DNA of 64,000 nt from Eubacteriales bacterium (lineage in GTDB: Bacteria > Bacillota > Clostridia > Oscillospirales > CAG-272), in NCBI GenBank assembly GCA_045544955.1, contig JAZPZY010000005.1, positions 35,571 through 99,570 of the forward strand, read 5' to 3'. Below, one piece after another: positions 6,151 through 27,116 of the stretch. A program made the position numbers and the translations under genes. The notes under the pieces were generated by a model. It was not told the origin of the DNA, searched no databases, and worked only from the letters and a program-made list of their open reading frames with translations. Within the stretch, counting starts at the first letter, position 1; each line of letters starts with the position of its first letter.

Positions 6151-8085
6151 TCAGCCGTTGTTCTTCACGAATGCCTTCGGATCTACCGTGTCCACGCCTA
6201 CATCACCGTAGATACGCCACTCCATACCCAGACGATCCCAGGCGGTGCGGCTTTCCAGATGCGGCTCCTTCTTGCCGTTCAGGTAAGACACGCGGATGCC
6301 CTCCACATCGTGAGGATCTGCGGCGAGATAGTAAGCCTTCACGCTGTATGTATCGAGTTCTGCGTCGATGACCGCATCGAAGGAGTTACGGAATACGTTC
6401 GCCGCGCCGCTGTTCTGCGCGGCAGGGTCTGCGGTAGAGTGGATCAGCTGGAGAGCAGCCACTTCCAGCTTCGCCGGAACAATCAGGAATTTTCCCTGGA
6501 TGTTCAGCGTTTCTTTTCCGCGAAGATTCTTCTGCGTCCGCATAAGGGTGTGCATATCGCCGACGCTTTCCACGCCAGGCGCGCCGGTGGTGGACAGATT
6601 ACCCTTCTCGGCGCTGTACGCGATAGAGGTCAGCGCCTTATAAACGAGTTTATTGATTGCACGCTTATAAGCACGTACGTATGCGGTAGGCACGGTAGAG
6701 AGTGCGGCAAGATCGTCATTGATCATGGCCTCGCGATTAAAGCCCCAGCTGCGTCCATAGGTAGCCAGCTGCGCGGTAGCTGCTGTATCTTTCATCTCGT
6801 CAAACTCAAACTCTGCGCCCGGTTTGATCCGCTTAAGATCACCCGCCTCGGAGATACTGTAAATCTTGGCTGACTTGAAATCCGTCAGGATTCCTTCAGT
6901 TGTGAACGCCTCAAACGTGGTCCGCACGGAAGCGTATGCACGTGCAAGAGATTTCTGGACGGTAGCGTCAAGAATAGCCGCAAAGGCGGAATCCGGACTG
7001 AGGGCACGTGCAAACGCCTCGCCGTCATCCAGATACTGCGGATTCTGTACGCCCGCGCGCATAAGGCATTCATCTGCCATGGCGCGAAGCCGCATGGGAC
7101 GGTAGTTCTTCGCCGCGCTCATGCGTTCATTGTCCAGTACTGCACCGGTGCGCATCATCAGTGCGTCCGACATGGCATCGCGGAATCTGTCACCCTCGTC
7201 GTTGGTTACGCGTACGGAAGACGTGGGATTGCCCTTCGCCAGTTTGTCAAGGATTGCGGCACGCACCTGATCAACGGTTGCACCGCTGTCGATGTGCGGC
7301 TGTGCGTCCATGCCAAAAGTACGGCACAGTGCAGTGATCTCCGACGCACGTACGCGTTCTGCCTCTACGGCGTTATCGCCATTCGGCTGTGCAGCAGGCA
7401 CGGTGCTTGCGGGTTCTGCCCCTCTCTGGGCAGGATCTGCGGTCTGCGGCACTGCCGGTGCCGCAGTCATGGTGTTTTCGTTTTCACCCATGGTCATTTC
7501 TCCTTTGTTTTGTGTATTTTCGATCGTTCTGCCTACACCCACGGTGTAATCGGCAGGAACGGGTTCGATGGAAATTTCGTAAGGCTCCCATCTGACAGCG
7601 ATATACGTTTCATCCTCTGCCGCCGTAAAGCGTCCGTCTGCGGATTTCTGCCCCTTCTTCTGAAGGTACTCCCATTCAGTAACACGATATCCCACGGAGA
7701 CGCCGCGGATAAAGCCTCCCTCCACCTTCCGGAGCACGGTCTGTGCAAATTCGTCCTCACCGTCAAACTCAACCTCGGCACGGCCGATGCTGTCTGCGTC
7801 CAGCCGGACGTCCGTGATTTTGGCGATCGGCATTCTGCCTGCCCTCTCATCGCTTCCATGAGCATACAGGACCACGCCTGCAGATCTGAGGCGCGTAAGA
7901 TCTATCGCACCCGGTGCATGGCTCAGAATCTCCGTGCCGTACCATCTCCGGTACGGTGTTTCAGATGAGAACGCAAGGCTTACACGCTTACTGACGCCCT
8001 CGCCCTCACTCCGTACCGCACCGATCTCCATAACGCGGGAAAAAGCATCCCCCACCATAGGCTTTCTGTATTTCTTATCAGGCAT
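6151..8085 (-). CDS. Prohead protease - major capsid protein fusion
   Basis: 644 aa. N-terminal HK97-type prohead protease-like region (SFSSETPYRRWYGTEILSHAPGAIDL...YAHG), a Pro/Ala linker, then a capsid-like C-terminal ~400 aa. No separate capsid gene in the module. Confidence 0.75.
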   Translation of the reverse strand: MPDKKYRKPMVGDAFSRVMEIGAVRSEGEGVSKRVSLAFSSETPYRRWYGTEILSHAPGAIDLTRLRSAGVVLYAHGSDERAGRMPIAKITDVRLDADSIGRAEVEFDGEDEFAQTVLRKVEGGFIRGVSVGYRVTEWEYLQKKGQKSADGRFTAAEDETYIAVRWEPYEISIEPVPADYTVGVGRTIENTQNKGEMTMGENENTMTAAPAVPQTADPAQRGAEPASTVPAAQPNGDNAVEAERVRASEITALCRTFGMDAQPHIDSGATVDQVRAAILDKLAKGNPTSSVRVTNDEGDRFRDAMSDALMMRTGAVLDNERMSAAKNYRPMRLRAMADECLMRAGVQNPQYLDDGEAFARALSPDSAFAAILDATVQKSLARAYASVRTTFEAFTTEGILTDFKSAKIYSISEAGDLKRIKPGAEFEFDEMKDTAATAQLATYGRSWGFNREAMINDDLAALSTVPTAYVRAYKRAINKLVYKALTSIAYSAEKGNLSTTGAPGVESVGDMHTLMRTQKNLRGKETLNIQGKFLIVPAKLEVAALQLIHSTADPAAQNSGAANVFRNSFDAVIDAELDTYSVKAYYLAADPHDVEGIRVSYLNGKKEPHLESRTAWDRLGMEWRIYGDVGVDTVDPKAFVKNNG

Positions 8086-17386: not shown

Positions 17387-18184
17387 TCAGCCCTCCTGCA
17401 AAAGTTTCATTTGCCCGTTTTCAAAATTACACCACAAAACCTCTGTACGTGGATCGGAGTTTTGATTATAGGAAGGCCTCTCACGCCTTCTCCACCCCTT
17501 CAAGTATGTATCATACATATCCGAAGGATATCCGCTGAGTATCACCATTCCTTTGTGATCCAGCAGTGCTTCCAGAAGATTAACGTGATCCTGCTCATTC
17601 ATTTCATGACGATACTGTTTCCCGCCCCTCGTGTGGAGCAAATACGGCGGATCTGCGTATATCAAAACATTTTCATGGTTGAATTTTTTGATCAGCTCCA
17701 AAGCAGGTCTATTTTCTATTTGCACGTTTTTCAATCTTGAAGCGGCTTCCAAAATTCCCTGCGGCATCTTATTCCAGCAGTCCACGCAGTAGGATCTTTC
17801 ACGTGCAAATACATCAATTTTGAAACCAGTTTTCTCATAGGTCTTGAAACCGTGTCCCATTCTTGATCTTATCGCGAATCGGTACGCTCTATCAAGAGCA
17901 GATCCTCCTCGGCGTTCATGCGCGTCATCAAACACTTCCCGTGCATACGGTGTCAATGCAATCATACGCGCCAATTCATCGGCGTTCTCTCGTAATACGA
18001 AAAAGAAATTTGTTATATCTCCATCAATATCATTCACTGTCTCAATAGCAGAAGGCTCCTTGTTGAACAGCACGGCGCCGGATCCGAAATAAGGCTCTAA
18101 ATAGGATCGATGCGGCGGCATCATGGATACAATTTCTTTCGCCATTCCCCATTTAGCACCGGGATAATTGAGAATTGCTTTCAT
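17387..18184 (-). CDS. DNA adenine (N6) methyltransferase, Dam/D12 class
   Basis: MKAILNYPGAKW...SYLEPYFGSGAV...IYADPPY motifs. Start taken at the TGATG overlap with the upstream stop, not the ORF start at 18277. Confidence 0.85.
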   Translation of the reverse strand: MKAILNYPGAKWGMAKEIVSMMPPHRSYLEPYFGSGAVLFNKEPSAIETVNDIDGDITNFFFVLRENADELARMIALTPYAREVFDDAHERRGGSALDRAYRFAIRSRMGHGFKTYEKTGFKIDVFARERSYCVDCWNKMPQGILEAASRLKNVQIENRPALELIKKFNHENVLIYADPPYLLHTRGGKQYRHEMNEQDHVNLLEALLDHKGMVILSGYPSDMYDTYLKGWRRRERPSYNQNSDPRTEVLWCNFENGQMKLLQEG

Positions 18185-19995
18185 CACGCAGTCACCTCCG
18201 TGCTTTCCACGCAATGCTCCGGCAGATTGGCTCTCACCAACGCCGCCGGCACAGGCGGGGTGACAGCATTTCCGCACCTGGCAACCTGTTTCGACTTCGG
18301 ATACGGCTTCCCTTCGTAATCTATATCGATGATGTAATCATCCGGGAATCCCTGGGCGTTGAACAGTTCTCGAGGCTGCAGCATACGCATCCGAATATCC
18401 GTAATTATGTATTCCTCGCCATGGATCGTCACAAGAGCAAAGCGATCTTTCGTGGTTACAGTATCAAGCGGTTCATGGACGGATTTTGCCGCACCACTTG
18501 AAAAATACTTCACAAGAAATGCTTCCACTTCTGCGTGGTGTGCTCCGCTGCACGAGACGGTAGACAACGGCTCGTCTGCCGGTTGCCCGTCCATGTTGTT
18601 TCTAAGAGTCAGAATGTGTGCCGTTACCAGACTGTTGTGGTCTTTTGCCGTAATCGTATCGAGCGGAGCATAAACATCACTGCCGGCTCCTTTATAGTTT
18701 CCGGCGTAATTCTTCATAATATGTGCGACTGAAAGTGCGTATCGATTCGATGTATCCTGTGTCATAAGCGGCTCATCAAGTTCTTGCCCTCTGACCTCAT
18801 CCTTTGCCGTCTCAGAATGATACTGGATCAACGTCGGGGCTACCATACCAAATCGGGTAGCTCCCGCCATCACAGTATCTATCGGTCGGTCTATCTCTTG
18901 CCCTTTGCTGTTCTGATTGAATGTTGTAATGATGGGCGTTATAAGGTAATTCCTGTTTCCTGTCGTCACCGTCGGCAGAGGAGAGTCCGCACTGGCCCCT
19001 GTGTTGTTCGTGTTGTTGCACATGATTGTCGGAACCACCACTCCGTACCCGTGCTTTGCAGTTACAGTCTGCAGCGGTTCGTCTATCTTCTGTCCTCGGA
19101 ATCTATCTCCTGCGTGATTCACAGACACAATGAACGGTTCCGGATTCTCAATGACGAACTTTTGGATCCCACGGGCAATTCGCCTCAAGGTATTTTCCGC
19201 CAGTGGTTTTTCTCGTTCAAAGATGCTTTGTGCCGGTATACTCCAGTCAATGCAATCCGCTGCTGTACGGTATGGGAGCAGGCGGCCCTCCCTCACTCCA
19301 CTTGATCCCCGTTTTCCGTGCGTCGGCTTCGGCCATACTATTTGCTTTCCGTCACACCGACCAATCATATAGAATCTTGTACGCGTCGTCGGTGCTCCGT
19401 AATCGCAGGACTTCAGCACCCGGAAATCGATCACGTACCCAAGCCCGTTCTGCAAATCATACGCCATAGGAGAGTCGATTGCTATTCCGAGTGCATCACA
19501 CATCTCACGAAAGGCAGGGTGATCCGCCGGGATCCCGGTTGTCAGTGCAAGAACAAACCCGGCGAACGTCTCGCCGGCACGCTCTTTGATTGGCTTGTTA
19601 TCTTCTCCCAGAGGGCCCCACGTCTGTATTTCCGGTACGTTCTCCAACATAATCACACGTGGGCGAACAGCGTATGCCCATTTGACCGCAACCCACGCAA
19701 GCCCTCGTATGTTTTTGTCCATAGGCTTACCGCCCTTCGCGCGGGAAAAATGCTTGCAATCCGGGCTAAACCACGCAAGAGCCACGGGCTTTCCGGCGCA
19801 GGCTTCCACGGGATCCACCTGCCAAACGTCCTCACAGTAGTGCTTAGTACTCGGGTGATTTGCTTTGTGCATGGCAATCGCGTCCGGATCATGGTTGATC
19901 GCAATGTCAACGCTTCTGCCAATAGCCAACTCAATGCCAGTGGAAGCACCGCCGCCGCCGGCAAAATTATCGACGAATAGTTCGCGTCCATTCAA
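18184..19995 (-). CDS. DNA cytosine-5 methyltransferase with expanded repeat-containing target-recognition region
   Basis: Motif I DNFAGGGG, motif IV FSPDCKHFS, motif VI MLENVPE, motif VIII TTRTRFYMIG, motif IX RMLQPRELFNAQGFPDDY, motif X CGNAVTPPV. About 330 aa lie between motifs VIII and IX. Confidence 0.85.
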   Translation of the reverse strand: MNGRELFVDNFAGGGGASTGIELAIGRSVDIAINHDPDAIAMHKANHPSTKHYCEDVWQVDPVEACAGKPVALAWFSPDCKHFSRAKGGKPMDKNIRGLAWVAVKWAYAVRPRVIMLENVPEIQTWGPLGEDNKPIKERAGETFAGFVLALTTGIPADHPAFREMCDALGIAIDSPMAYDLQNGLGYVIDFRVLKSCDYGAPTTRTRFYMIGRCDGKQIVWPKPTHGKRGSSGVREGRLLPYRTAADCIDWSIPAQSIFEREKPLAENTLRRIARGIQKFVIENPEPFIVSVNHAGDRFRGQKIDEPLQTVTAKHGYGVVVPTIMCNNTNNTGASADSPLPTVTTGNRNYLITPIITTFNQNSKGQEIDRPIDTVMAGATRFGMVAPTLIQYHSETAKDEVRGQELDEPLMTQDTSNRYALSVAHIMKNYAGNYKGAGSDVYAPLDTITAKDHNSLVTAHILTLRNNMDGQPADEPLSTVSCSGAHHAEVEAFLVKYFSSGAAKSVHEPLDTVTTKDRFALVTIHGEEYIITDIRMRMLQPRELFNAQGFPDDYIIDIDYEGKPYPKSKQVARCGNAVTPPVPAALVRANLPEHCVESTEVTA

Positions 19996-21332: not shown

Positions 21333-21665
21333 TTAATCTCCTTTTACATATTTCTTTTGGTTCATCCCGAGTGTATACACCCGCGTTTTAACTGCATACC
21401 TGCTTCTGGCGATTCTTTCCGCGATCGCCGTGTAGCTTGCTCCCGCCGACAGCATGTCCACGAGAATCGCATCCTGCTCCGCCGTCCACCGCGGAGCCTT
21501 TTTCTTTCCGGCTCTCTGCCCTTTCGTCAGCATGTCCACCCCGTTCCGCTTAAGGATCTCCACGATCACGTCCCGGGTAACGCCGTTCAGTTCGGCAAGC
21601 ACTCTGATCTCTTTCGGCGGAGACTTCGCCTGACGGTACAGCGTCACGATGTCCCCGTCACTCAT
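21333..21665 (-). CDS. Two-HTH phage regulator, GcrA/Myb-like C-terminal motif (paralog 1)
   Basis: MSDGDIVTLYRQAKSPPKEIRVLAELNGVTRDVIVEILKRNG plus WTAEQDAILVDMLSAGASYTAIAERIARSRYAVKTRVYTLG. ATGA overlap start. Confidence 0.5.
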   Translation of the reverse strand: MSDGDIVTLYRQAKSPPKEIRVLAELNGVTRDVIVEILKRNGVDMLTKGQRAGKKKAPRWTAEQDAILVDMLSAGASYTAIAERIARSRYAVKTRVYTLGMNQKKYVKGD

Positions 21666-21669
21666 CCAC
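21545..21669. repeat. Direct DNA repeat, copy A (~125 bp, ~88% identical to 22120-22244)
   Basis: atctccacgatcacgtcccgggtaacgccgttcag...gatgtccccgtcactcatcca is shared by both copies. Confidence 0.8.
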
Positions 21670-22255
21670 ACTTTGTTCTCTCCTTTTCTTGCAAGCATAT
21701 ATCCATATTACCGATTGAACTTTTCAGACATACGCCGTGTTCGGTTACTTCAACGGCGGCAAACTCTGGTTGACCAATTTCACGTACGATCGCAGCGAAC
21801 ATATCAGCAATCCTTACAAGTTTACCTGCAACATCTGATGCAGATGCCGTGCTCTGTTTCGCGACCTCTTCCTTATCCACTTCTTCTGCAATTTTCTTTC
21901 CTTCTTCGCGCAGTTTTTTAAGTTTCGATACAATCGCCGCTTTCGTTCTTCCAAGTTCTGCAGCGATTTGTTCTGCTGTAAGGCCGAGTTTCTTCTTATC
22001 AAGCATATACTTTACTTCATCTGGAGTCCATTCCGGTCCTCTCATTTTCTTCTTTGCCCCTTTCTCTTTGCTTTTTTCAAACGTTAAAGTATCTTTATAG
22101 TGCTTTAAAGTAATTCCATTTCGTTCAAGAATCTCCACGATCACGTCCCGGGTAACGCCGTTCAGCTCGGCAAGCACTCTAATCTCTTTCGGCGGAGACG
22201 CCGCCTGCCGGTACATCATTACGATGTCCCCGTCACTCATCCACGGCCGGCTCAT
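21662..22255 (-). CDS. Two-HTH phage regulator, GcrA/Myb-like motif (paralog 2, with extra C-terminal domain)
   Basis: MSDGDIVMMYRQAASPPKEIRVLAELNGVTRDVIVEILERNG plus WTPDEVKYMLDKKKLGLTAEQIAAELGRTKAAIVSKLKKL. Confidence 0.5.
   Translation of the reverse strand: MSRPWMSDGDIVMMYRQAASPPKEIRVLAELNGVTRDVIVEILERNGITLKHYKDTLTFEKSKEKGAKKKMRGPEWTPDEVKYMLDKKKLGLTAEQIAAELGRTKAAIVSKLKKLREEGKKIAEEVDKEEVAKQSTASASDVAGKLVRIADMFAAIVREIGQPEFAAVEVTEHGVCLKSSIGNMDICLQEKERTKCG
22120..22244. repeat. Direct DNA repeat, copy B
   Basis: See copy A. Encodes the duplicated N-terminal HTH domain. Confidence 0.8.
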
Positions 22256-22527
22256 GCTGTTCCCGATGCGATAGGTTTCTTCTCTACGTAATCCTTGCCG
22301 TCCAGCGTTGCCAGTTTCTCCGGATGCTTTTGAATGTACGCACTTGCCGCCCGGCTCATAGCCGCCGATGCCTTTTCCGCATATCCGTCCGGTAACCGGT
22401 CCACCGGTTTGCCATCGTAAAAGATTTGGTATGTAATCTTCTGATTCCGTCTTCCTGCCACATCGTTCACCACCTTTCTGTCAGTGTATGTTATGTTTGC
22501 ATATCGGTGCGTGTCCCTCTCCCGCAT
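22252..22527 (-). CDS. Hypothetical early protein (start uncertain)
   Basis: Start taken at the ATG overlapping the cro-like stop (TGATG). The ORF extension to 22644 overlaps the cro-like gene. Confidence 0.35.
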   Translation of the reverse strand: MRERDTHRYANITYTDRKVVNDVAGRRNQKITYQIFYDGKPVDRLPDGYAEKASAAMSRAASAYIQKHPEKLATLDGKDYVEKKPIASGTA

Positions 22528-22733
22528 CAGGCGGGAGTTTCTTTTTGTTCCGGCTGACGGAGCAATTCGTCCACCGTGCAGCCCAGCACGTCCGCCAGCT
22601 TCGGCAGAAGATCTGCCCTGGGTTTCACGGTTCCGTTCTCCCATTGAGAAACGGCACCTTGCGTAACACCAAGCTGCTTCGCTATGTCGGTCTGCGTAAG
22701 AGATCGCTTTTCACGAGCCTCACTAATTGTCAT
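22527..22733 (-). CDS. Cro-like XRE HTH repressor
   Basis: MTISEAREKRSLTQTDIAKQLGVTQGAVSQWENG. GGAGGT SD. First gene of the leftward early operon, divergent from cI. Confidence 0.8.
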   Translation of the reverse strand: MTISEAREKRSLTQTDIAKQLGVTQGAVSQWENGTVKPRADLLPKLADVLGCTVDELLRQPEQKETPA

Positions 22734-22831: not shown

Positions 22832-22860
22832 TTGAAATATATTAGTTATTCTAATATAAT
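22832..22860 (+). promoter_or_regulatory. Rightward lysogenic promoter (cI side)
   Basis: TTGAAA (22832-22837), 17 nt spacer, TATAAT (22855-22860). GTGAGGTGA SD before the ATG at 22880. Confidence 0.6.
22839..22857. promoter_or_regulatory. Candidate operator palindrome ATATTAG-n5-CTAATAT
   Basis: Perfect 7-bp inverted repeat overlapping the cI promoter spacer and -10. A half-site TTCTAATAT recurs at 22806-22814. Confidence 0.45.
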
Positions 22861-22879: not shown

Positions 22880-23500
22880 ATGAACAGAATACAAGAACTT
22901 CGCAAAGGCTTGGGATACTCTCAACAGAAACTTGCGAAATGCTTAAACGTACATCAAACTGCGATTTCTCAATGGGAAACCGGCCGGACAAGCCCCGATA
23001 TTGACGTGGCAACCGTTATGTCTCAATTATTCGGCGTCTCTTTGGAATATTTGCTCGGCATCTCCGATGAAGGCAATGTATCCACCCCCGCCGTCGCAAA
23101 CATTCTCCCTCTCCCGGAGACGTACGAGATTCCGCTGCTGGGCGACATCGCCTGCGGTACGCCTATTCTCGCCACGGAGAACGTGGAGCAGATGGTCACT
23201 GTTCCCTCTCACATCACCGCCGATTTCTGCCTCCGCTGCAAAGGTGACAGCATGATCGGTGCCCGGATCTACGACGGCGATCTGGTGTACATCAAGCAGC
23301 AGGACGACGTGGACGACGGCCAGATCGCGGCGGTACTCGTAGACGACGAAGCCACGCTAAAGCGGGTGTACCGTGACGGCGACAGCATGATCCTGCAAGC
23401 CGAGAACCCGGCGATCAAGCCGCAGATATACACGGCCAAGGACGCCAAGAACATCCGGATCATCGGATTGGCTGTTGCATTTTTGAGTAAGGTAAGGTGA
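22880..23500 (+). CDS. cI/LexA-like repressor (XRE HTH + S24 peptidase)
   Basis: N-terminal HTH LGYSQQKLAKCLNVHQTAISQWETG. C-terminal S24 motifs CKGDSMIGARI (Ser) and ATLKRV (Lys). Confidence 0.85.
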   Translation: MNRIQELRKGLGYSQQKLAKCLNVHQTAISQWETGRTSPDIDVATVMSQLFGVSLEYLLGISDEGNVSTPAVANILPLPETYEIPLLGDIACGTPILATENVEQMVTVPSHITADFCLRCKGDSMIGARIYDGDLVYIKQQDDVDDGQIAAVLVDDEATLKRVYRDGDSMILQAENPAIKPQIYTAKDAKNIRIIGLAVAFLSKVR

Positions 23501-23509
23501 GAGTGTTGC

Positions 23510-24595
23510 ATGCGATGGGCAATACTGATAATTATTATTTTATTGATTCTTAATTCACTCGATTTTAATCAAATCGGCGACGGTGCAGCTCTTATCATTA
23601 TCTTACTGTTTCTATTGATTCCTTTTGTTCTCTACCTAATCTCCAAAAAGTACGTAAAAAAGAATCCCAATTCAATGGCATCACGCCCTAAGGAAGACTA
23701 TAGCGAGCCCACACATATAGAACAAACTGTATCTCGTTACAATCGATACACTGACGAGGACGACGATTACAAATACTGCCCCGATTGTTTTTTGAAAAAC
23801 CCGGACGATCGCTGGTACTGCATAGAATGCGGTCACGCTTTTGCTGAAGGCGAACCGACCGTGACTTCTCACGAACACCCTTTCGAATACAGTTACTGGC
23901 TTTCGCCCAAATTCCGAACGAAACATCAACGCACCCGGTTTCGGCGGGCATCTCAAATTCAAATGAAGTCACACACGCCTGATTTTTACCATGCCACTGT
24001 GTATTCTTCTGATCGCTCCTCCCTTTACGAAGTCACCCCAGAAGAGTGTTCGTGTCAAGATTTTTTCAAGCGTGGACTGCCATGCAAGCACATGTATGCG
24101 GTAATGATAGAGGCAAATGTTTTATCTTCGATTGCTTCTCTCTACAATCTGCCGCGTAACATCTCCGCTCGTATTGACAATTTGCATGACATCTCAAAAG
24201 ATTCCGCCCGTGAATTTGCTTTGTTTCTCCGATACAAGCGTTTTAATTCCAACAGCGTGATCGTAGATCGTTCAAATGACGTTTTTGCACATCTCCCGAA
24301 TATCGTATCTTCTTCTCTTATAGAAATAAATTTCTCCACTACCGATCTGATTGCATATGTTGAAAAAACATACACCGTCGATGAGTTCCGGGAAGTCTGT
24401 TCAGCCGTTGCACCGGAATTGGAACTTCCTAAACTGAAAAAGCATGATTTGATAGAGTTTGCTCTTTCGCAAAAACTTGAATTATCCGAATATTTCTCAA
24501 ATTTAGTTTACTTTGTTCGCATTCCGGATGATGTTTTCACCCACCGAAGAGATATTTTCGATTATTATTTTGAAGAACACCCGGATGCGGTTTGA
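23510..24595 (+). CDS. Membrane-anchored zinc-ribbon + SWIM zinc-finger protein (lysogeny-module moron)
   Basis: Two N-terminal TM helices (WAILIIIILLILN, ALIIILLFLLIPFVLYLI). CPDC...CIECGH zinc ribbon. SWIM CSCQDFFKRGLPCKHMY. C-terminal segment with an HeH/SAP-like LPKLKKHDLIEFAL. Clearly more AT-rich than its neighbours. Confidence 0.7.
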   Translation: MRWAILIIIILLILNSLDFNQIGDGAALIIILLFLLIPFVLYLISKKYVKKNPNSMASRPKEDYSEPTHIEQTVSRYNRYTDEDDDYKYCPDCFLKNPDDRWYCIECGHAFAEGEPTVTSHEHPFEYSYWLSPKFRTKHQRTRFRRASQIQMKSHTPDFYHATVYSSDRSSLYEVTPEECSCQDFFKRGLPCKHMYAVMIEANVLSSIASLYNLPRNISARIDNLHDISKDSAREFALFLRYKRFNSNSVIVDRSNDVFAHLPNIVSSSLIEINFSTTDLIAYVEKTYTVDEFREVCSAVAPELELPKLKKHDLIEFALSQKLELSEYFSNLVYFVRIPDDVFTHRRDIFDYYFEEHPDAV

Positions 24596-24654
24596 CTATT
24601 TGCATACCTTTTTGTTCGCTGTTCCATTTTACCCCCCAAAAAAAGGAGGACACC

Positions 24655-26106
24655 ATGGACATAACCGCCCCAAAAATCGCCGCCGCGTACCTCCGTGTAT
24701 CCGACGAGCGGCAAGACGAATTCTCCCCGGACAGCCAACTGAAGCGCATCCGCGAATACTGTGACGCCAACGGCTACGAGCTGCCAAAGGAATATATCTT
24801 CTACGATGACGGCATCAGCGGCAAATCTGTGAAACGCCGCGATCAATTTCGGGATCTTATCGCCCTGGCTAAAGACAAGGAGCATCCCATCGATGCGATC
24901 CTGGTATGGAAGTTTTCCCGATTTGCACGAAATCAAGAAGAAAGCATCGTATACAAGTCCCTCCTCCAAAAGATCGGCGTGACCGTCGTCTCCATCTCTG
25001 AGCCGCTTCCGGAAGGCCCGTTCGGCAGTCTGGTGGAACGTATCATCGAATGGATGGACGAATACTATCTTATCCGCCTGTCCGGCGAGGTAAGACGCGG
25101 TATGCTGGAGAAGGCATCCCGCGGAAAGCCTGTCACCGCTCCGGCGTTCGGTTACGATCTGCGGGACGATACGTATTACCCGAATGAGGACGCCGACACG
25201 GTGCGTGCCGTTTTCTCCGCTTTCATCGCTGGGGATGGTATGCGGGAAATTGCCGTTCGTCTGGGTAATGCCGGCGTCCGCACACGCTTCGGAAACGTGC
25301 CTGACAACCGCTGGATCGAATACATGCTGAACAATCCGGTGTATATCGGAAAGATCCGCTGGTCAACAGAGGGCCGTACCGTTTCCAGGCGGCAATACGA
25401 TGACCCGAACACGATCATTTTTGATGGACAACACGAGCCGATCATCACAGAGGACGTTTGGAACGCCGCCCAGGCACTTTTGCTGCAGCGGAAGACAAAG
25501 TACGCCAAGCATGCCAAACGTGAGCAGAAGCCGTCCACGTTCCCTCTCCGCAGTCTATTCCGATGCAGTGCCTGTGGAGCTACGCTTGTCCAGAACCAAA
25601 CGAAAAGCCCGTCTCTGCAATGCCACAACTACTCCCGCGGCACATGCACGATCTCTCACAGCATCACGCAGAAAAAAGCAGAGGCCGCACTCAGTGAGGC
25701 ACTGGAGGAGTCTATCCGCACCCTCACTTTCCACGTGACGCCCAAACCGGAACTTCTCTCCTCTCCCGATAATCTGGATATAGAAAAGAGCATCGCCGCA
25801 GAGCAGAGACGTCTGCAGCGTGCCAAAGATGCGTATCAGAACGGCGTCGATACACTGGAAGAATACGCAGAAAATAAAAAAAGGATCACGAAACGCATTC
25901 GTGATCTTGAATCTCAATTAAAACCGGTTCAGCCGGTGTCTGTTCCCGCAGAAGCCTACGCCACCCGTGTCGCCGACGCTCTAAACCTTCTTCGTGATCC
26001 GGACGCTGACCCCGGCATGAAAAACAGTGTATTGCTTGAGGTTTTGGAGAAAGTGGTCTTCCATGCGGATACCCGCCAGATAGACATATATTTCCGCCCT
26101 CTGTGA
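24655..26106 (+). CDS. Large serine recombinase (prophage integrase)
   Basis: AGGAGGA SD. AAAYLRVSDERQDEFSPDSQ catalytic Ser motif, recombinase domain, zinc ribbon CSACGATL...CHNYSRGTC, coiled-coil tail. 483 aa. Confidence 0.9.
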   Translation: MDITAPKIAAAYLRVSDERQDEFSPDSQLKRIREYCDANGYELPKEYIFYDDGISGKSVKRRDQFRDLIALAKDKEHPIDAILVWKFSRFARNQEESIVYKSLLQKIGVTVVSISEPLPEGPFGSLVERIIEWMDEYYLIRLSGEVRRGMLEKASRGKPVTAPAFGYDLRDDTYYPNEDADTVRAVFSAFIAGDGMREIAVRLGNAGVRTRFGNVPDNRWIEYMLNNPVYIGKIRWSTEGRTVSRRQYDDPNTIIFDGQHEPIITEDVWNAAQALLLQRKTKYAKHAKREQKPSTFPLRSLFRCSACGATLVQNQTKSPSLQCHNYSRGTCTISHSITQKKAEAALSEALEESIRTLTFHVTPKPELLSSPDNLDIEKSIAAEQRRLQRAKDAYQNGVDTLEEYAENKKRITKRIRDLESQLKPVQPVSVPAEAYATRVADALNLLRDPDADPGMKNSVLLEVLEKVVFHADTRQIDIYFRPL

Positions 26107-26110
26107 ATCA

Positions 26111-26221
26111 TCAGCAAAAGCCATCCGGACCGCCAAGTTGACTGACAATGATCTGTGCGTACTTGGGATTCGGGTTTTTAATTTTTACGGGGAACTGCAA
26201 TTCTTTTCTATACACCCACAT
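26111..26221 (-). pseudogene. cotJC: cotJC 5' fragment (34 native codons), truncated by the prophage junction
   Basis: GGAGGG SD. ATG at 26221, 3 nt after the cotJB stop. MWVYRKELQFPVKIKNPNPKYAQIIVSQLGGPDG then FC-stop. Compare B. subtilis CotJC MWVYEKKLQYPVKV...EQYGGADGEL (from memory). Confidence 0.8.
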
Positions 26222-26224
26222 ATC

Positions 26225-26650
26225 TCAACCCTCCCAGGGCCAGGGCAGACGTGCCCAAAGCCATTCATTTTCGCAACGGTTACCTTCGGCCGTCAGCGGA
26301 CCGTACTGTTTTTCAAATTTTTCCGCCAGTGCTTTGTAGTCATTTACCGCACAGCGATACCGGGCAAGTGCGTCGGCGTTATCCGGATGACCGTCCAGAT
26401 ACAGTTCCAACTCTACCACCACGAAATACAGTGCCATCAGTTTTTCCCGCATCTGGCAAAAATCGTTCCGGTTCCAGCCGGCCGGCATCACGCCGGTTTT
26501 TGTACCGGGCATCCGGTACCCGTCACCGCACGTACCGGCTCTCTCCCCGTCACGGAAGCAGCCGTCCGTCCGACGGGCAACACCGCCGACACAGCTTCGC
26601 CGTTCCGGTGAAGGATACCGGCACGCGTTTCCACGCATATTGCAAATCAT
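26225..26650 (-). CDS. cotJB: Spore coat protein CotJB (start uncertain)
   Basis: C-terminal part LMALYFVVVELELYLDGHPDNADALARY...YGPLTAEG...WLWARLPWPWEG is the CotJB signature. Start placed at the ATGA overlap with cotJA; a shorter form could start at MREKL. Confidence 0.8.
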   Translation of the reverse strand: MICNMRGNACRYPSPERRSCVGGVARRTDGCFRDGERAGTCGDGYRMPGTKTGVMPAGWNRNDFCQMREKLMALYFVVVELELYLDGHPDNADALARYRCAVNDYKALAEKFEKQYGPLTAEGNRCENEWLWARLPWPWEG

Positions 26651-26976
26651 ACGCATCCTCCTCTCGTTCCGTTGGCATCCTTAATGGGAAGATACAGATT
26701 CTGAAACAGCGTACCGTGAGCCAGTGCTTCTTCCGCACAGGAAAACACGTCGCCGAAACCCTGATAGGGAGAGGACACCATAGCCAGCGGCGAATCAGAC
26801 CACTGATCTGCCGTGCCGCACGGTCTGTCCTCGGCGGGAATCTCCGCACAGTCGCAGCTGCATCCGTCCGCCACCCGGGAGCATATCTCGCGTGTGACCG
26901 TGATCGGTCCACGCATCATCATATCCGTACAGTCACCGCAGATTCGCGGCGATGCAGAATAATCGTACATTTTCAT
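26647..26976 (-). CDS. cotJA: Spore coat-associated protein CotJA
   Basis: PLAMVSSPYQGFGDVFSCAEEALAHGTLFQNLYLP matches the CotJA motif (LAMAYVPxQ...AL..GT.F..L..P). Start at MKMYDYS. Confidence 0.7.
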   Translation of the reverse strand: MKMYDYSASPRICGDCTDMMMRGPITVTREICSRVADGCSCDCAEIPAEDRPCGTADQWSDSPLAMVSSPYQGFGDVFSCAEEALAHGTLFQNLYLPIKDANGTRGGCV

Positions 26977-27077
26977 TCTAACAATACCTTTCCGATAATC
27001 GTCTCGACGGTGCGAAAATCCGCACTGTCTGACAGTACCATCATATGTCATCTGTGCACGGATTGTGACGATTCCGG

Positions 27078-27116
27078 AAGAAAAGAAATCACCGGCTTTG
27101 CGGTGCAAAGCCGGTG
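27078..27116 (-). terminator. Intrinsic terminator after the lipoprotein gene
   Basis: 12-bp stem CACCGGCTTTGC/GCAAAGCCGGTG (27090-27101 / 27105-27116) followed on the minus strand by ATTTCTTTTCTT. Confidence 0.7.

Follow-up and report, generated by a model that had tools for sequence, protein, structure and literature searches.

What is the role of the single gene that separates the repressor from the integrase in a prophage of the Eubacteriales bacterium GCA_045544955.1 (CAG-272)? The question is raised by a stretch of 64,000 nucleotides (contig JAZPZY010000005.1, positions 35,571 to 99,570 of the forward strand), hereafter called the window, the left 26 kb of which form a tailed prophage. 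In its lysogeny operon, a gene for a 361-amino-acid (aa) protein lies between a cI/LexA-type repressor gene and a large serine recombinase gene, and it encodes two predicted transmembrane (TM) helices, a zinc ribbon, a SWIM finger, and a helical C-terminal domain; we refer to it as the SWIM gene. We found that the SWIM gene is real and under purifying selection, and that the slot it occupies is a bona fide defence/exclusion hotspot of which the SWIM family is a recurrent occupant. Since this slot usually carries anti-phage genes, the SWIM gene appears to be a credible phage-exclusion or defence candidate from an unstudied family. The reading we favour, at a probability of about 0.45, is that it would be a lysogen-expressed cargo gene protecting against other phages by superinfection exclusion or defence.

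The preliminary description of this DNA had placed a 361-aa open reading frame (ORF) directly after the cI stop codon and had let it overlap the leader of the recombinase gene. The ORF was found as described (Table 1), with a gap of 9 nt between the cI TGA (23498-23500) and the ATG at 23510. The overlap exists only between the SWIM stop codon (24593-24595) and a mechanical, TTG-extended recombinase ORF, but the probable recombinase start is the ATG at 24655, downstream of the SWIM gene, with an AAGGAGG ribosome-binding site at 24643-24649. In a sequence pattern scan, the sole good plus-strand promoter-like site precedes cI, no plus-strand terminator-like site lies between cI, the SWIM gene, and the recombinase gene, and a divergent promoter-like site for the cro-like gene was located at 22799-22771. 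The site before cI is the presumed promoter of a cI-SWIM(-int) transcript. Co-transcription with cI is the natural reading of the 9-nt gap, the promoter found only before cI, and the lack of a plus-strand terminator, and the SWIM gene is thus very probably expressed together with the repressor; this operon structure suggests that its product is made in the uninduced lysogen.

The first 60 nt of the SWIM gene have a guanine-plus-cytosine (GC) content of only 25%, and the whole gene has 41.4% (41% at third codon positions, GC3), compared with 54.4% (GC3 68%) in cI and 54.2% (GC3 62.5%) in the recombinase gene, which agrees with the AT-rich composition noted before. The label of a moron that came with it holds in part: the gene is an AT-rich accessory gene whose composition is unlike that of the flanking phage genes, as in the Hendrix/Juhala definition, but it is operonic with cI and does not have its own promoter and terminator. 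A classical moron in that stricter sense was rejected, because no such plus-strand sites flank the gene and only 9 nt separate it from cI.

Using an alignment of 22 sequences, AlphaFold2 (AF2) gave a compact and confident model of aa 78-361, with a predicted local distance difference test score (pLDDT) of 91.5 and a predicted template modelling score (pTM) of 0.79. The two N-terminal TM helices claimed earlier were confirmed as hydrophobic helices at aa 3-17 and 26-45 in an AF2 run on a 2-sequence alignment (pLDDT 50). Because a Lys-rich stretch follows these helices, the positive-inside rule would make everything after them cytoplasmic, including the C-terminus; in the homologue P0002, a single TM helix followed by an Arg/Lys-rich stretch points to the same orientation. 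The ribbon residues C90, C93, N97, W102, C104, and C107 fit the C-x2-C-x10-C-x2-C RanBP2 pattern, and the four cysteines together with W102 are invariant in five close relatives. The zinc ribbon thus stands, though below the curated hidden Markov model (HMM) thresholds in the window protein (Zn_ribbon_RanBP, 12.2 bits vs 27; DZR, 14.6 bits vs 27.3, E 0.037); a RanBP-type model is matched by three relatives, with a best E of 5.6e-6, and Foldseek finds a likeness to the MDM2 and RYBP zinc fingers that is not significant for such a small domain.

The SWIM motif is supported by Pfam model PF04434, which reaches 29.1 bits over aa 179-202 (gathering score, 19.6) and matches 22 of the 22 family members tested. 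None of the putative zinc ligands C180, C182, C192, and H194 varies among 22 divergent relatives, and the region forms three strands (aa 152-175) and helices with pLDDT above 90 in the AF2 model. By HMM and motif, we assign the product to the SWIM finger superfamily. The C-terminal domain is best conserved at aa 290-321, where K311 is nearly invariant and where AF2 places two helices (aa 290-300 and 311-321) joined by a 10-residue loop. This helix-loop-helix is what had been called HeH/SAP-like; the structural element is predicted, but neither the window protein (at E<=1) nor the 22 family members (at E<=0.05) match a SAP/HeH-type profile, the domain is acidic here, its charge varies across the family, and the label can only be tentative. 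Foldseek searches against the PDB and BFVD gave no significant full-length analogue and no enzyme-like match; the best matches were the N-terminal DNA-binding region of FAN1 (PDB, E 0.18), which contains a SAP domain, and viral SWIM proteins. In the window protein we found no nuclease, ATPase, or toxin domain, and neither a Peptidase_M78 match nor an HEXXH motif.

Searches of PHROGs, NCBIfam, PADLOC, and the PDB sequences with the window protein returned nothing beyond SWIM, and the family has no model in PHROGs, NCBIfam, or PADLOC, with Pfam covering the SWIM finger only. PADLOC-DB v2 gave 0 matches at E<=10 for the window protein, which accords with the earlier statement that no named defence or exclusion system could be recognised. 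Against 50,697 deposited phage genomes, tblastn with the window protein and three family members produced one partial match only, in an unannotated faecal metagenomic phage. In the literature searched, SWIM proteins were not described as part of lysogeny modules or of defence. We know of no SWIM protein described in the context of a prophage lysogeny operon.

The number of relatives depends strongly on the search: a word-indexed search recovered one homologue (P0002) with the protein and 11 with the family profile, and an exhaustive HMMER search 206 representative relatives at E<=1e-3. P0002 is 68% identical to the window protein, comes from a metagenome-assembled genome of a sheep-colon Clostridia member, and is named 'SWIM zinc finger family protein'. 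The full architecture of TM helix or helices, linker, C4 ribbon, SWIM finger, and C-terminal domain is present in P0002-P0005, which are 37-74% identical where the soluble region could be matched. The core of the wider family is soluble and consists of a basic helix, the SWIM finger, and a helical domain of ~150 aa, preceded by N-termini that vary from none to 1-3 TM helices or a ribbon. The TM anchor and the zinc ribbon are evidently lineage-specific additions, and the family itself is, by these matches, widespread and uncharacterised; the isolated oddity implied by the preliminary description turns out to be one member of a widespread family with a soluble core. Among the relatives, some have unusual architectures (P0007, P0009, P0011, P0006, P0012, and P0037), including a signal peptide with a YHYH domain, TM helices, a long coiled coil, and a ribbon with a SWIM finger at the C-terminus; a 560-aa tandem duplication of the entire SWIM and C-domain module; a protein with four SWIM repeats; and a fusion of SWIM, C-domain, and a BRCT domain.

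To what extent is the position of the gene shared by its relatives? When IMG/VR was scanned with the family alignment, 169 relatives were obtained, from which 80 loci were taken; our own ORF calling, profile search, and clustering reduced these to 53 clusters, and 1189 genes from the same loci served as controls. A helix-turn-helix (HTH) repressor gene lies at most two genes upstream on the same strand in 33 of the 53 clusters (62%), compared with 7.5% of controls, and a large serine recombinase gene lies at most three genes downstream in 22 of 53 (41.5%), compared with 3% of controls. The same arrangement appears in bacterial genome and metagenome matches from Oscillospiraceae, Lachnospiraceae, and other gut Clostridia. 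Pfam checks of the unlabelled neighbours added at least five loci in which a tyrosine integrase lies downstream, and they showed Abi_2 and AAA_15/AAA_21 genes sharing the interval with SWIM genes; in four loci, the repressor gene is followed by an ImmA/IrrE M78 protease gene and then by the SWIM gene. Judging by these neighbours, the family is bound neither to one repressor design, being found with HTH-only, S24-bearing, and ImmA-assisted ones, nor to one integrase class, as both are represented; no recurrent partner gene was found across the family loci. SWIM-family genes are also AT-richer than their surroundings, by a mean of -5.6 GC points, with 48 of the 53 clusters negative (Wilcoxon p 2e-8). 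The check proposed beforehand, whether homologues recur in cI-int slots or near known defence genes, is answered in the affirmative by these counts and by the adjoining Abi_2 and AAA_15/21 genes.

The slot was also surveyed from the side of the recombinase, in 80 viral contigs (L113-L192) with recombinases 37-52% identical to that of the window. The interval from repressor to recombinase holds 0-5 genes of unrelated sizes, and a SWIM-family gene is present in only ~11 of the 80 contigs. The 57 cargo clusters include AbiD/Abi_2 (5) and PD-Lambda-1 (3), together with ToxN, an Ltp exclusion lipoprotein, Mrr_cat, HSDR_N, Uma2, T5orf172/MUG113/DUF4041, NYN, and PemK/MazF; S02, S04, S05, S13, and S57 are PADLOC candidates, and many further cargo genes carry no annotation. 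We regard the slot as a defence/exclusion hotspot because its cargo clusters include so many anti-phage genes, and the earlier view of the cI-int interval as an exclusion and abortive-infection slot is hereby shown for related phages, with AbiD, PD-Lambda-1, ToxN, and Ltp as examples. Minimal SWIM-only proteins (~94-96 aa) were also seen; their genes follow other variable cargo and precede the serine recombinase by two genes at most (L133, L135, L138, L148, L153, L154, L157, L158, and L160). Since this lineage sits by the recombinase, beyond the other cargo, there are hints that some SWIM proteins are tied to the recombinase and not to the repressor.

A sister prophage (L001-L005, L086) occupies the same insertion site as the window prophage, and it reveals how the SWIM gene has been inherited. 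Between the two prophages (window vs L001) cI is 31%, the SWIM gene 68%, and the recombinase 78% identical; DNA homology starts at 23768, in the zinc ribbon, and runs through the recombinase gene, whereas the TM/linker part and cI have been exchanged. From this pattern the immunity region has evidently been swapped, with the junction inside the SWIM gene. Against the 68%-identical homologue of the sister prophage, the soluble part (aa 86-361) shows a proportion of nonsynonymous differences (pN) of 0.136 and of synonymous differences (pS) of 0.718, compared with a pN of 0.51 for the anchor and linker, i.e., a fast turnover of the N-terminus. In the sister prophage, the SWIM gene and the recombinase gene are separated by an additional gene for a 293-aa protein (L001:11090-11971, plus strand; also in L002-L005 and L086), with four N-terminal CxxC..CxxC ribbons, one TM helix, and an extracytoplasmic domain of ~130 aa; this second membrane-anchored zinc-ribbon cargo of the same slot is absent from the window.

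How could such a protein act? The candidate anti-phage status is supported because the gene is dispensable for the lysogeny module, independent of repressor and integrase type, foreign in composition, and placed in a hotspot dominated by anti-phage genes, and because its N-terminal part evolves fast. In the mechanism that we would propose, which deserves less confidence than the protective role itself, an accessory cargo gene in the repressor operon would be expressed in the lysogen alongside the cI-type repressor, and its product would be a non-catalytic protein anchored in the inner membrane, with the C4 ribbon, the basic helix, the SWIM finger, and the helical domain all facing the cytoplasm. 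On the cytoplasmic side of the membrane, the zinc-binding module may then bind a nucleic acid or protein of an incoming phage, and this stoichiometric binding would block genome entry or establishment. Stoichiometric recognition is the most economical choice because there is no catalytic domain and no partner is needed. A more far-reaching version, which we consider rather doubtful, is that the module might define, in gut Clostridia, a new and widespread class of prophage immunity proteins that are non-enzymatic and recognise the entering genome end or a pilot protein, with the anchored ribbon clade capturing its target at the cytoplasmic mouth of the injection channel; exclusion would then act from the inner side of the membrane. 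Should the protective role be true, the SWIM family would be a new, abundant single-gene anti-phage or exclusion family, the bacterial stand-alone SWIM module would gain its first function, and there would be an entry point for work on prophage-mediated immunity in the uncultured Clostridia of the gut, among which very few defence genes have been put to the test. In any case, the serine-recombinase prophages of these bacteria have a rich defence hotspot between repressor and integrase that could be mined systematically.

Several observations weigh against an anti-phage role or against this mechanism. The role is argued from location, composition, and presence/absence variation only, and guilt by location is probabilistic: the slot also holds non-defence genes, namely ImmA-like proteases, an ion channel, RhuM, and Bro-N. 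No PADLOC model matches any of the 22 family members above chance level, and no public RNA run contains the SWIM gene sequence; among public DNA runs, none has more than 40% of its sequence words. A TM anchor is present in 2 of the 27 IMG/VR clusters that carry the C-domain, and a membrane-based mechanism hence cannot be general for the family. DNA binding is not evident beyond the basic pre-SWIM helix, because the C-domain is acidic here and of variable charge in the family. Finally, the soluble part of the SWIM protein was inherited with the recombinase while cI was exchanged, which a link to integration would also explain.

That last point belongs to an alternative which we hold to be unlikely, in which the SWIM protein would be an accessory factor of the lysis-lysogeny decision or of integration, i.e., a DNA- or protein-binding helper modulating the repressor, induction (for example by sensing DNA damage), or the activity or directionality of the recombinase. 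The gene is almost always within the repressor operon and near the integrase, its soluble part travels with the recombinase, the SWIM-only lineage (95 aa) can stand directly before the recombinase, one relative has a BRCT domain, and the weak top PDB match is a DNA-binding region; but a helper of this kind is hard to reconcile with three different repressor/induction designs and both integrase classes, with the many phages whose related recombinases come without a SWIM gene or with an empty slot, and with a foreign-like AT-rich composition throughout the family. Recombination directionality factors are not expected to be expressed in the repressor transcript, which speaks against an excision factor here. 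A serine-integrase cofactor or directionality factor was ruled out as the leading explanation, because tyrosine integrases also lie downstream and the gene is in the repressor operon, and a substitute for ImmA was likewise ruled out, as ImmA-like genes co-occur with SWIM genes.

More doubtful still is an abortive-infection sensor-effector, in which the SWIM module would sense a phage component and the TM helices would oligomerise, depolarise the membrane, and kill the cell. TM helices fused to a recognition module without an enzymatic effector are what such a protein would look like, TM segments have been fused to the SWIM core repeatedly and independently (TM with SWIM only; TM with SWIM and C-domain), and Abi-type genes are among the neighbouring cargo. 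However, most members with a C-domain have no TM segment, and between the 68%-identical homologues the TM number is 2 vs 1 and the TM region is nearly neutral; since the number varies and the region evolves almost neutrally, a passive anchor fits better than a pore-forming effector. It is improbable, and we rank it lower again, that the protein is a host-directed lysogenic-conversion factor affecting host DNA metabolism, sporulation, or envelope physiology in these spore-forming gut Clostridia: its presumed expression in the lysogen, the interruption of the sporulation gene cotJC by the prophage, and the non-defence cargo of the slot would suit it, but the domain content points to no host pathway, the family resides in prophages at many insertion sites with different integrases, and known defence genes dominate the identifiable cargo. 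A spurious or decaying ORF in an AT-rich spacer, to which only the atypical composition would point, has a negligible probability and is refuted by the purifying selection, a SWIM score above the gathering threshold, 206 relatives, the confident AF2 fold, and a good Shine-Dalgarno sequence with an ATG. Protection against other phages accordingly stays ahead of each of these alternatives in our weighing, at the tentative level given at the outset.

Table 1. Coordinates in the window of the SWIM gene, its parts, and the neighbouring features.
Feature	Position	Strand	Basis or remark
SWIM gene, 361 aa (membrane-anchored zinc ribbon, SWIM, and helical C-domain protein)	23510..24595	+	
N-terminal hydrophobic hairpin, TM1 aa 3-17 and TM2 aa 26-45, then KKYVKK	23516..23644	+	AF2 helices
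Low-complexity, poorly conserved linker, aa 46-85	23645..23764	+	
C4 zinc ribbon, RanBP2-like spacing C-x2-C-x3-N-x6-C-x2-C	23765..23848	+	C90, C93, C104, C107
Basic helix 'W..(Q/H)R.RF.RA', family-specific, net charge +7	23888..23959	+	R143 invariant in family
SWIM finger, three strands and helix, C180-x-C182-x9-C192-x-H194	23960..24130	+	Pfam, AF2
Helical C-terminal domain, ~150 aa, net charge -8	24131..24592	+	no Pfam model
Conserved helix-loop-helix 'FPxLKKxDLIE(F/Y)', aa 290-321	24377-24472	+	alignment, AF2
AAGGTGA Shine-Dalgarno sequence of the SWIM gene, overlapping the cI stop	23494..23500	+	read from sequence; 9 nt before ATG
cI/LexA-type repressor gene (HTH_3 and Peptidase_S24), first gene of the lysogeny operon	22880..23500	+	Pfam
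Sigma-70-like promoter TTGAAA-17-TATAAT before the repressor	22832..22860	+	11/12 consensus, pattern match only
cro-like HTH gene, divergent from the repressor	22527..22733	-	
Large serine recombinase gene (Resolvase, Recombinase, and Zn_ribbon_recom), prophage integrase	24655..26106	+	Pfam
5' fragment (36 codons) of host cotJC (Mn-catalase), right prophage junction	26114..26224	-	
cotJB	26225-26656		
cotJA-like ORF	26647-27108		

The prophage carries genes for a tape-measure protein, a tail tube protein, a protease-capsid protein, a lambda-type portal, a gpA-type terminase, and two DNA methyltransferases, together with early and immunity regions. It is inserted inside cotJC, because only the first 36 codons of that gene adjoin its right end, followed by cotJB and a cotJA-like ORF; the left junction is not contained in the window. 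In spore formers, phage-like intervening elements have been reported to target cotJC (Abe et al. 2013, cited in bioRxiv 10.1101/2021.11.22.469490). In the early region, the genes at 21333-21698 and 21662-22255 (both minus strand) are paralogues with 46% identity over 120 aa, sharing an N-terminal 'WMSDGDIV..YRQA.SPPKEIRVLAELNGVTRDVIVEIL' segment and an HTH_11/GcrA-like region. The two methyltransferase genes of the same region (17387-18277 and 18184-19995, both minus strand) correspond to sister-locus genes called MethyltransfD12 and DNA_methylase (C5), and both are probably anti-restriction self-methylation genes. The ORF at 6151-8085 (minus strand, 644 aa) is a fusion of a Peptidase_S78 prohead protease with a Phage_capsid_4 capsid domain.

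SWIM fingers are reportedly found in SNF2-associated bacterial proteins, MuDR transposases, and MEKK1 (Makarova et al. 2002), as well as in Sws1/Shu2. The window protein shares with them a canonical CxCx(n)CxH motif above threshold, a predicted fold of three strands with a helix, and a presumable role in DNA or protein recognition with no catalysis expected, but its finger is embedded in a module of ~230 aa that is not joined to a helicase, transposase, or kinase, and its lineage is membrane-tethered with a C4 ribbon before the finger. In Firmicutes elements such as ICEBs1, the place between repressor and integrase is classically taken by a gene for an ImmA/IrrE (Peptidase_M78) anti-repressor. 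Like such genes, the SWIM gene lies directly downstream of the repressor in the same operon; unlike them, its product has no HEXXH motif or M78 domain, the window repressor has its own S24 autocleavage domain, and elsewhere the order is repressor, ImmA, SWIM.

In temperate phages of Gram-positive bacteria, exclusion genes are located in the integrase-repressor interval, as in the case of Sie2009 of lactococcal P335 phages and Ltp of Streptococcus thermophilus phage TP-J34, and HK97 gp15 is an inner-membrane moron protein. The window protein resembles these three in the slot, the presumed expression in the lysogen, the membrane-associated product, the single gene, and the lack of an enzymatic domain, and in one phage whose recombinase is related, this slot is even filled by an Ltp-family gene. 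There is, however, no sequence or fold similarity between them, and Sie2009, Ltp, and gp15 work mainly within the membrane or from its outer side, whereas the bulk of the window protein is a predicted cytoplasmic zinc-binding module and most of its family is soluble. Compared with the single-gene systems of PADLOC and DefenseFinder, the window protein is without homology to the PADLOC models and without a nuclease, ATPase, or toxin domain. Prophage-mediated defence genes reportedly also lie between the integrase and the repressor in mycobacteriophages (Dedrick et al. 2017). With these genes, as with AbiD and PD-Lambda-1, the SWIM gene has in common that it is an accessory, presumably lysogen-expressed cargo gene in a variable hotspot beside the immunity genes, and AbiD and PD-Lambda-1 fill the homologous slot in related phages.

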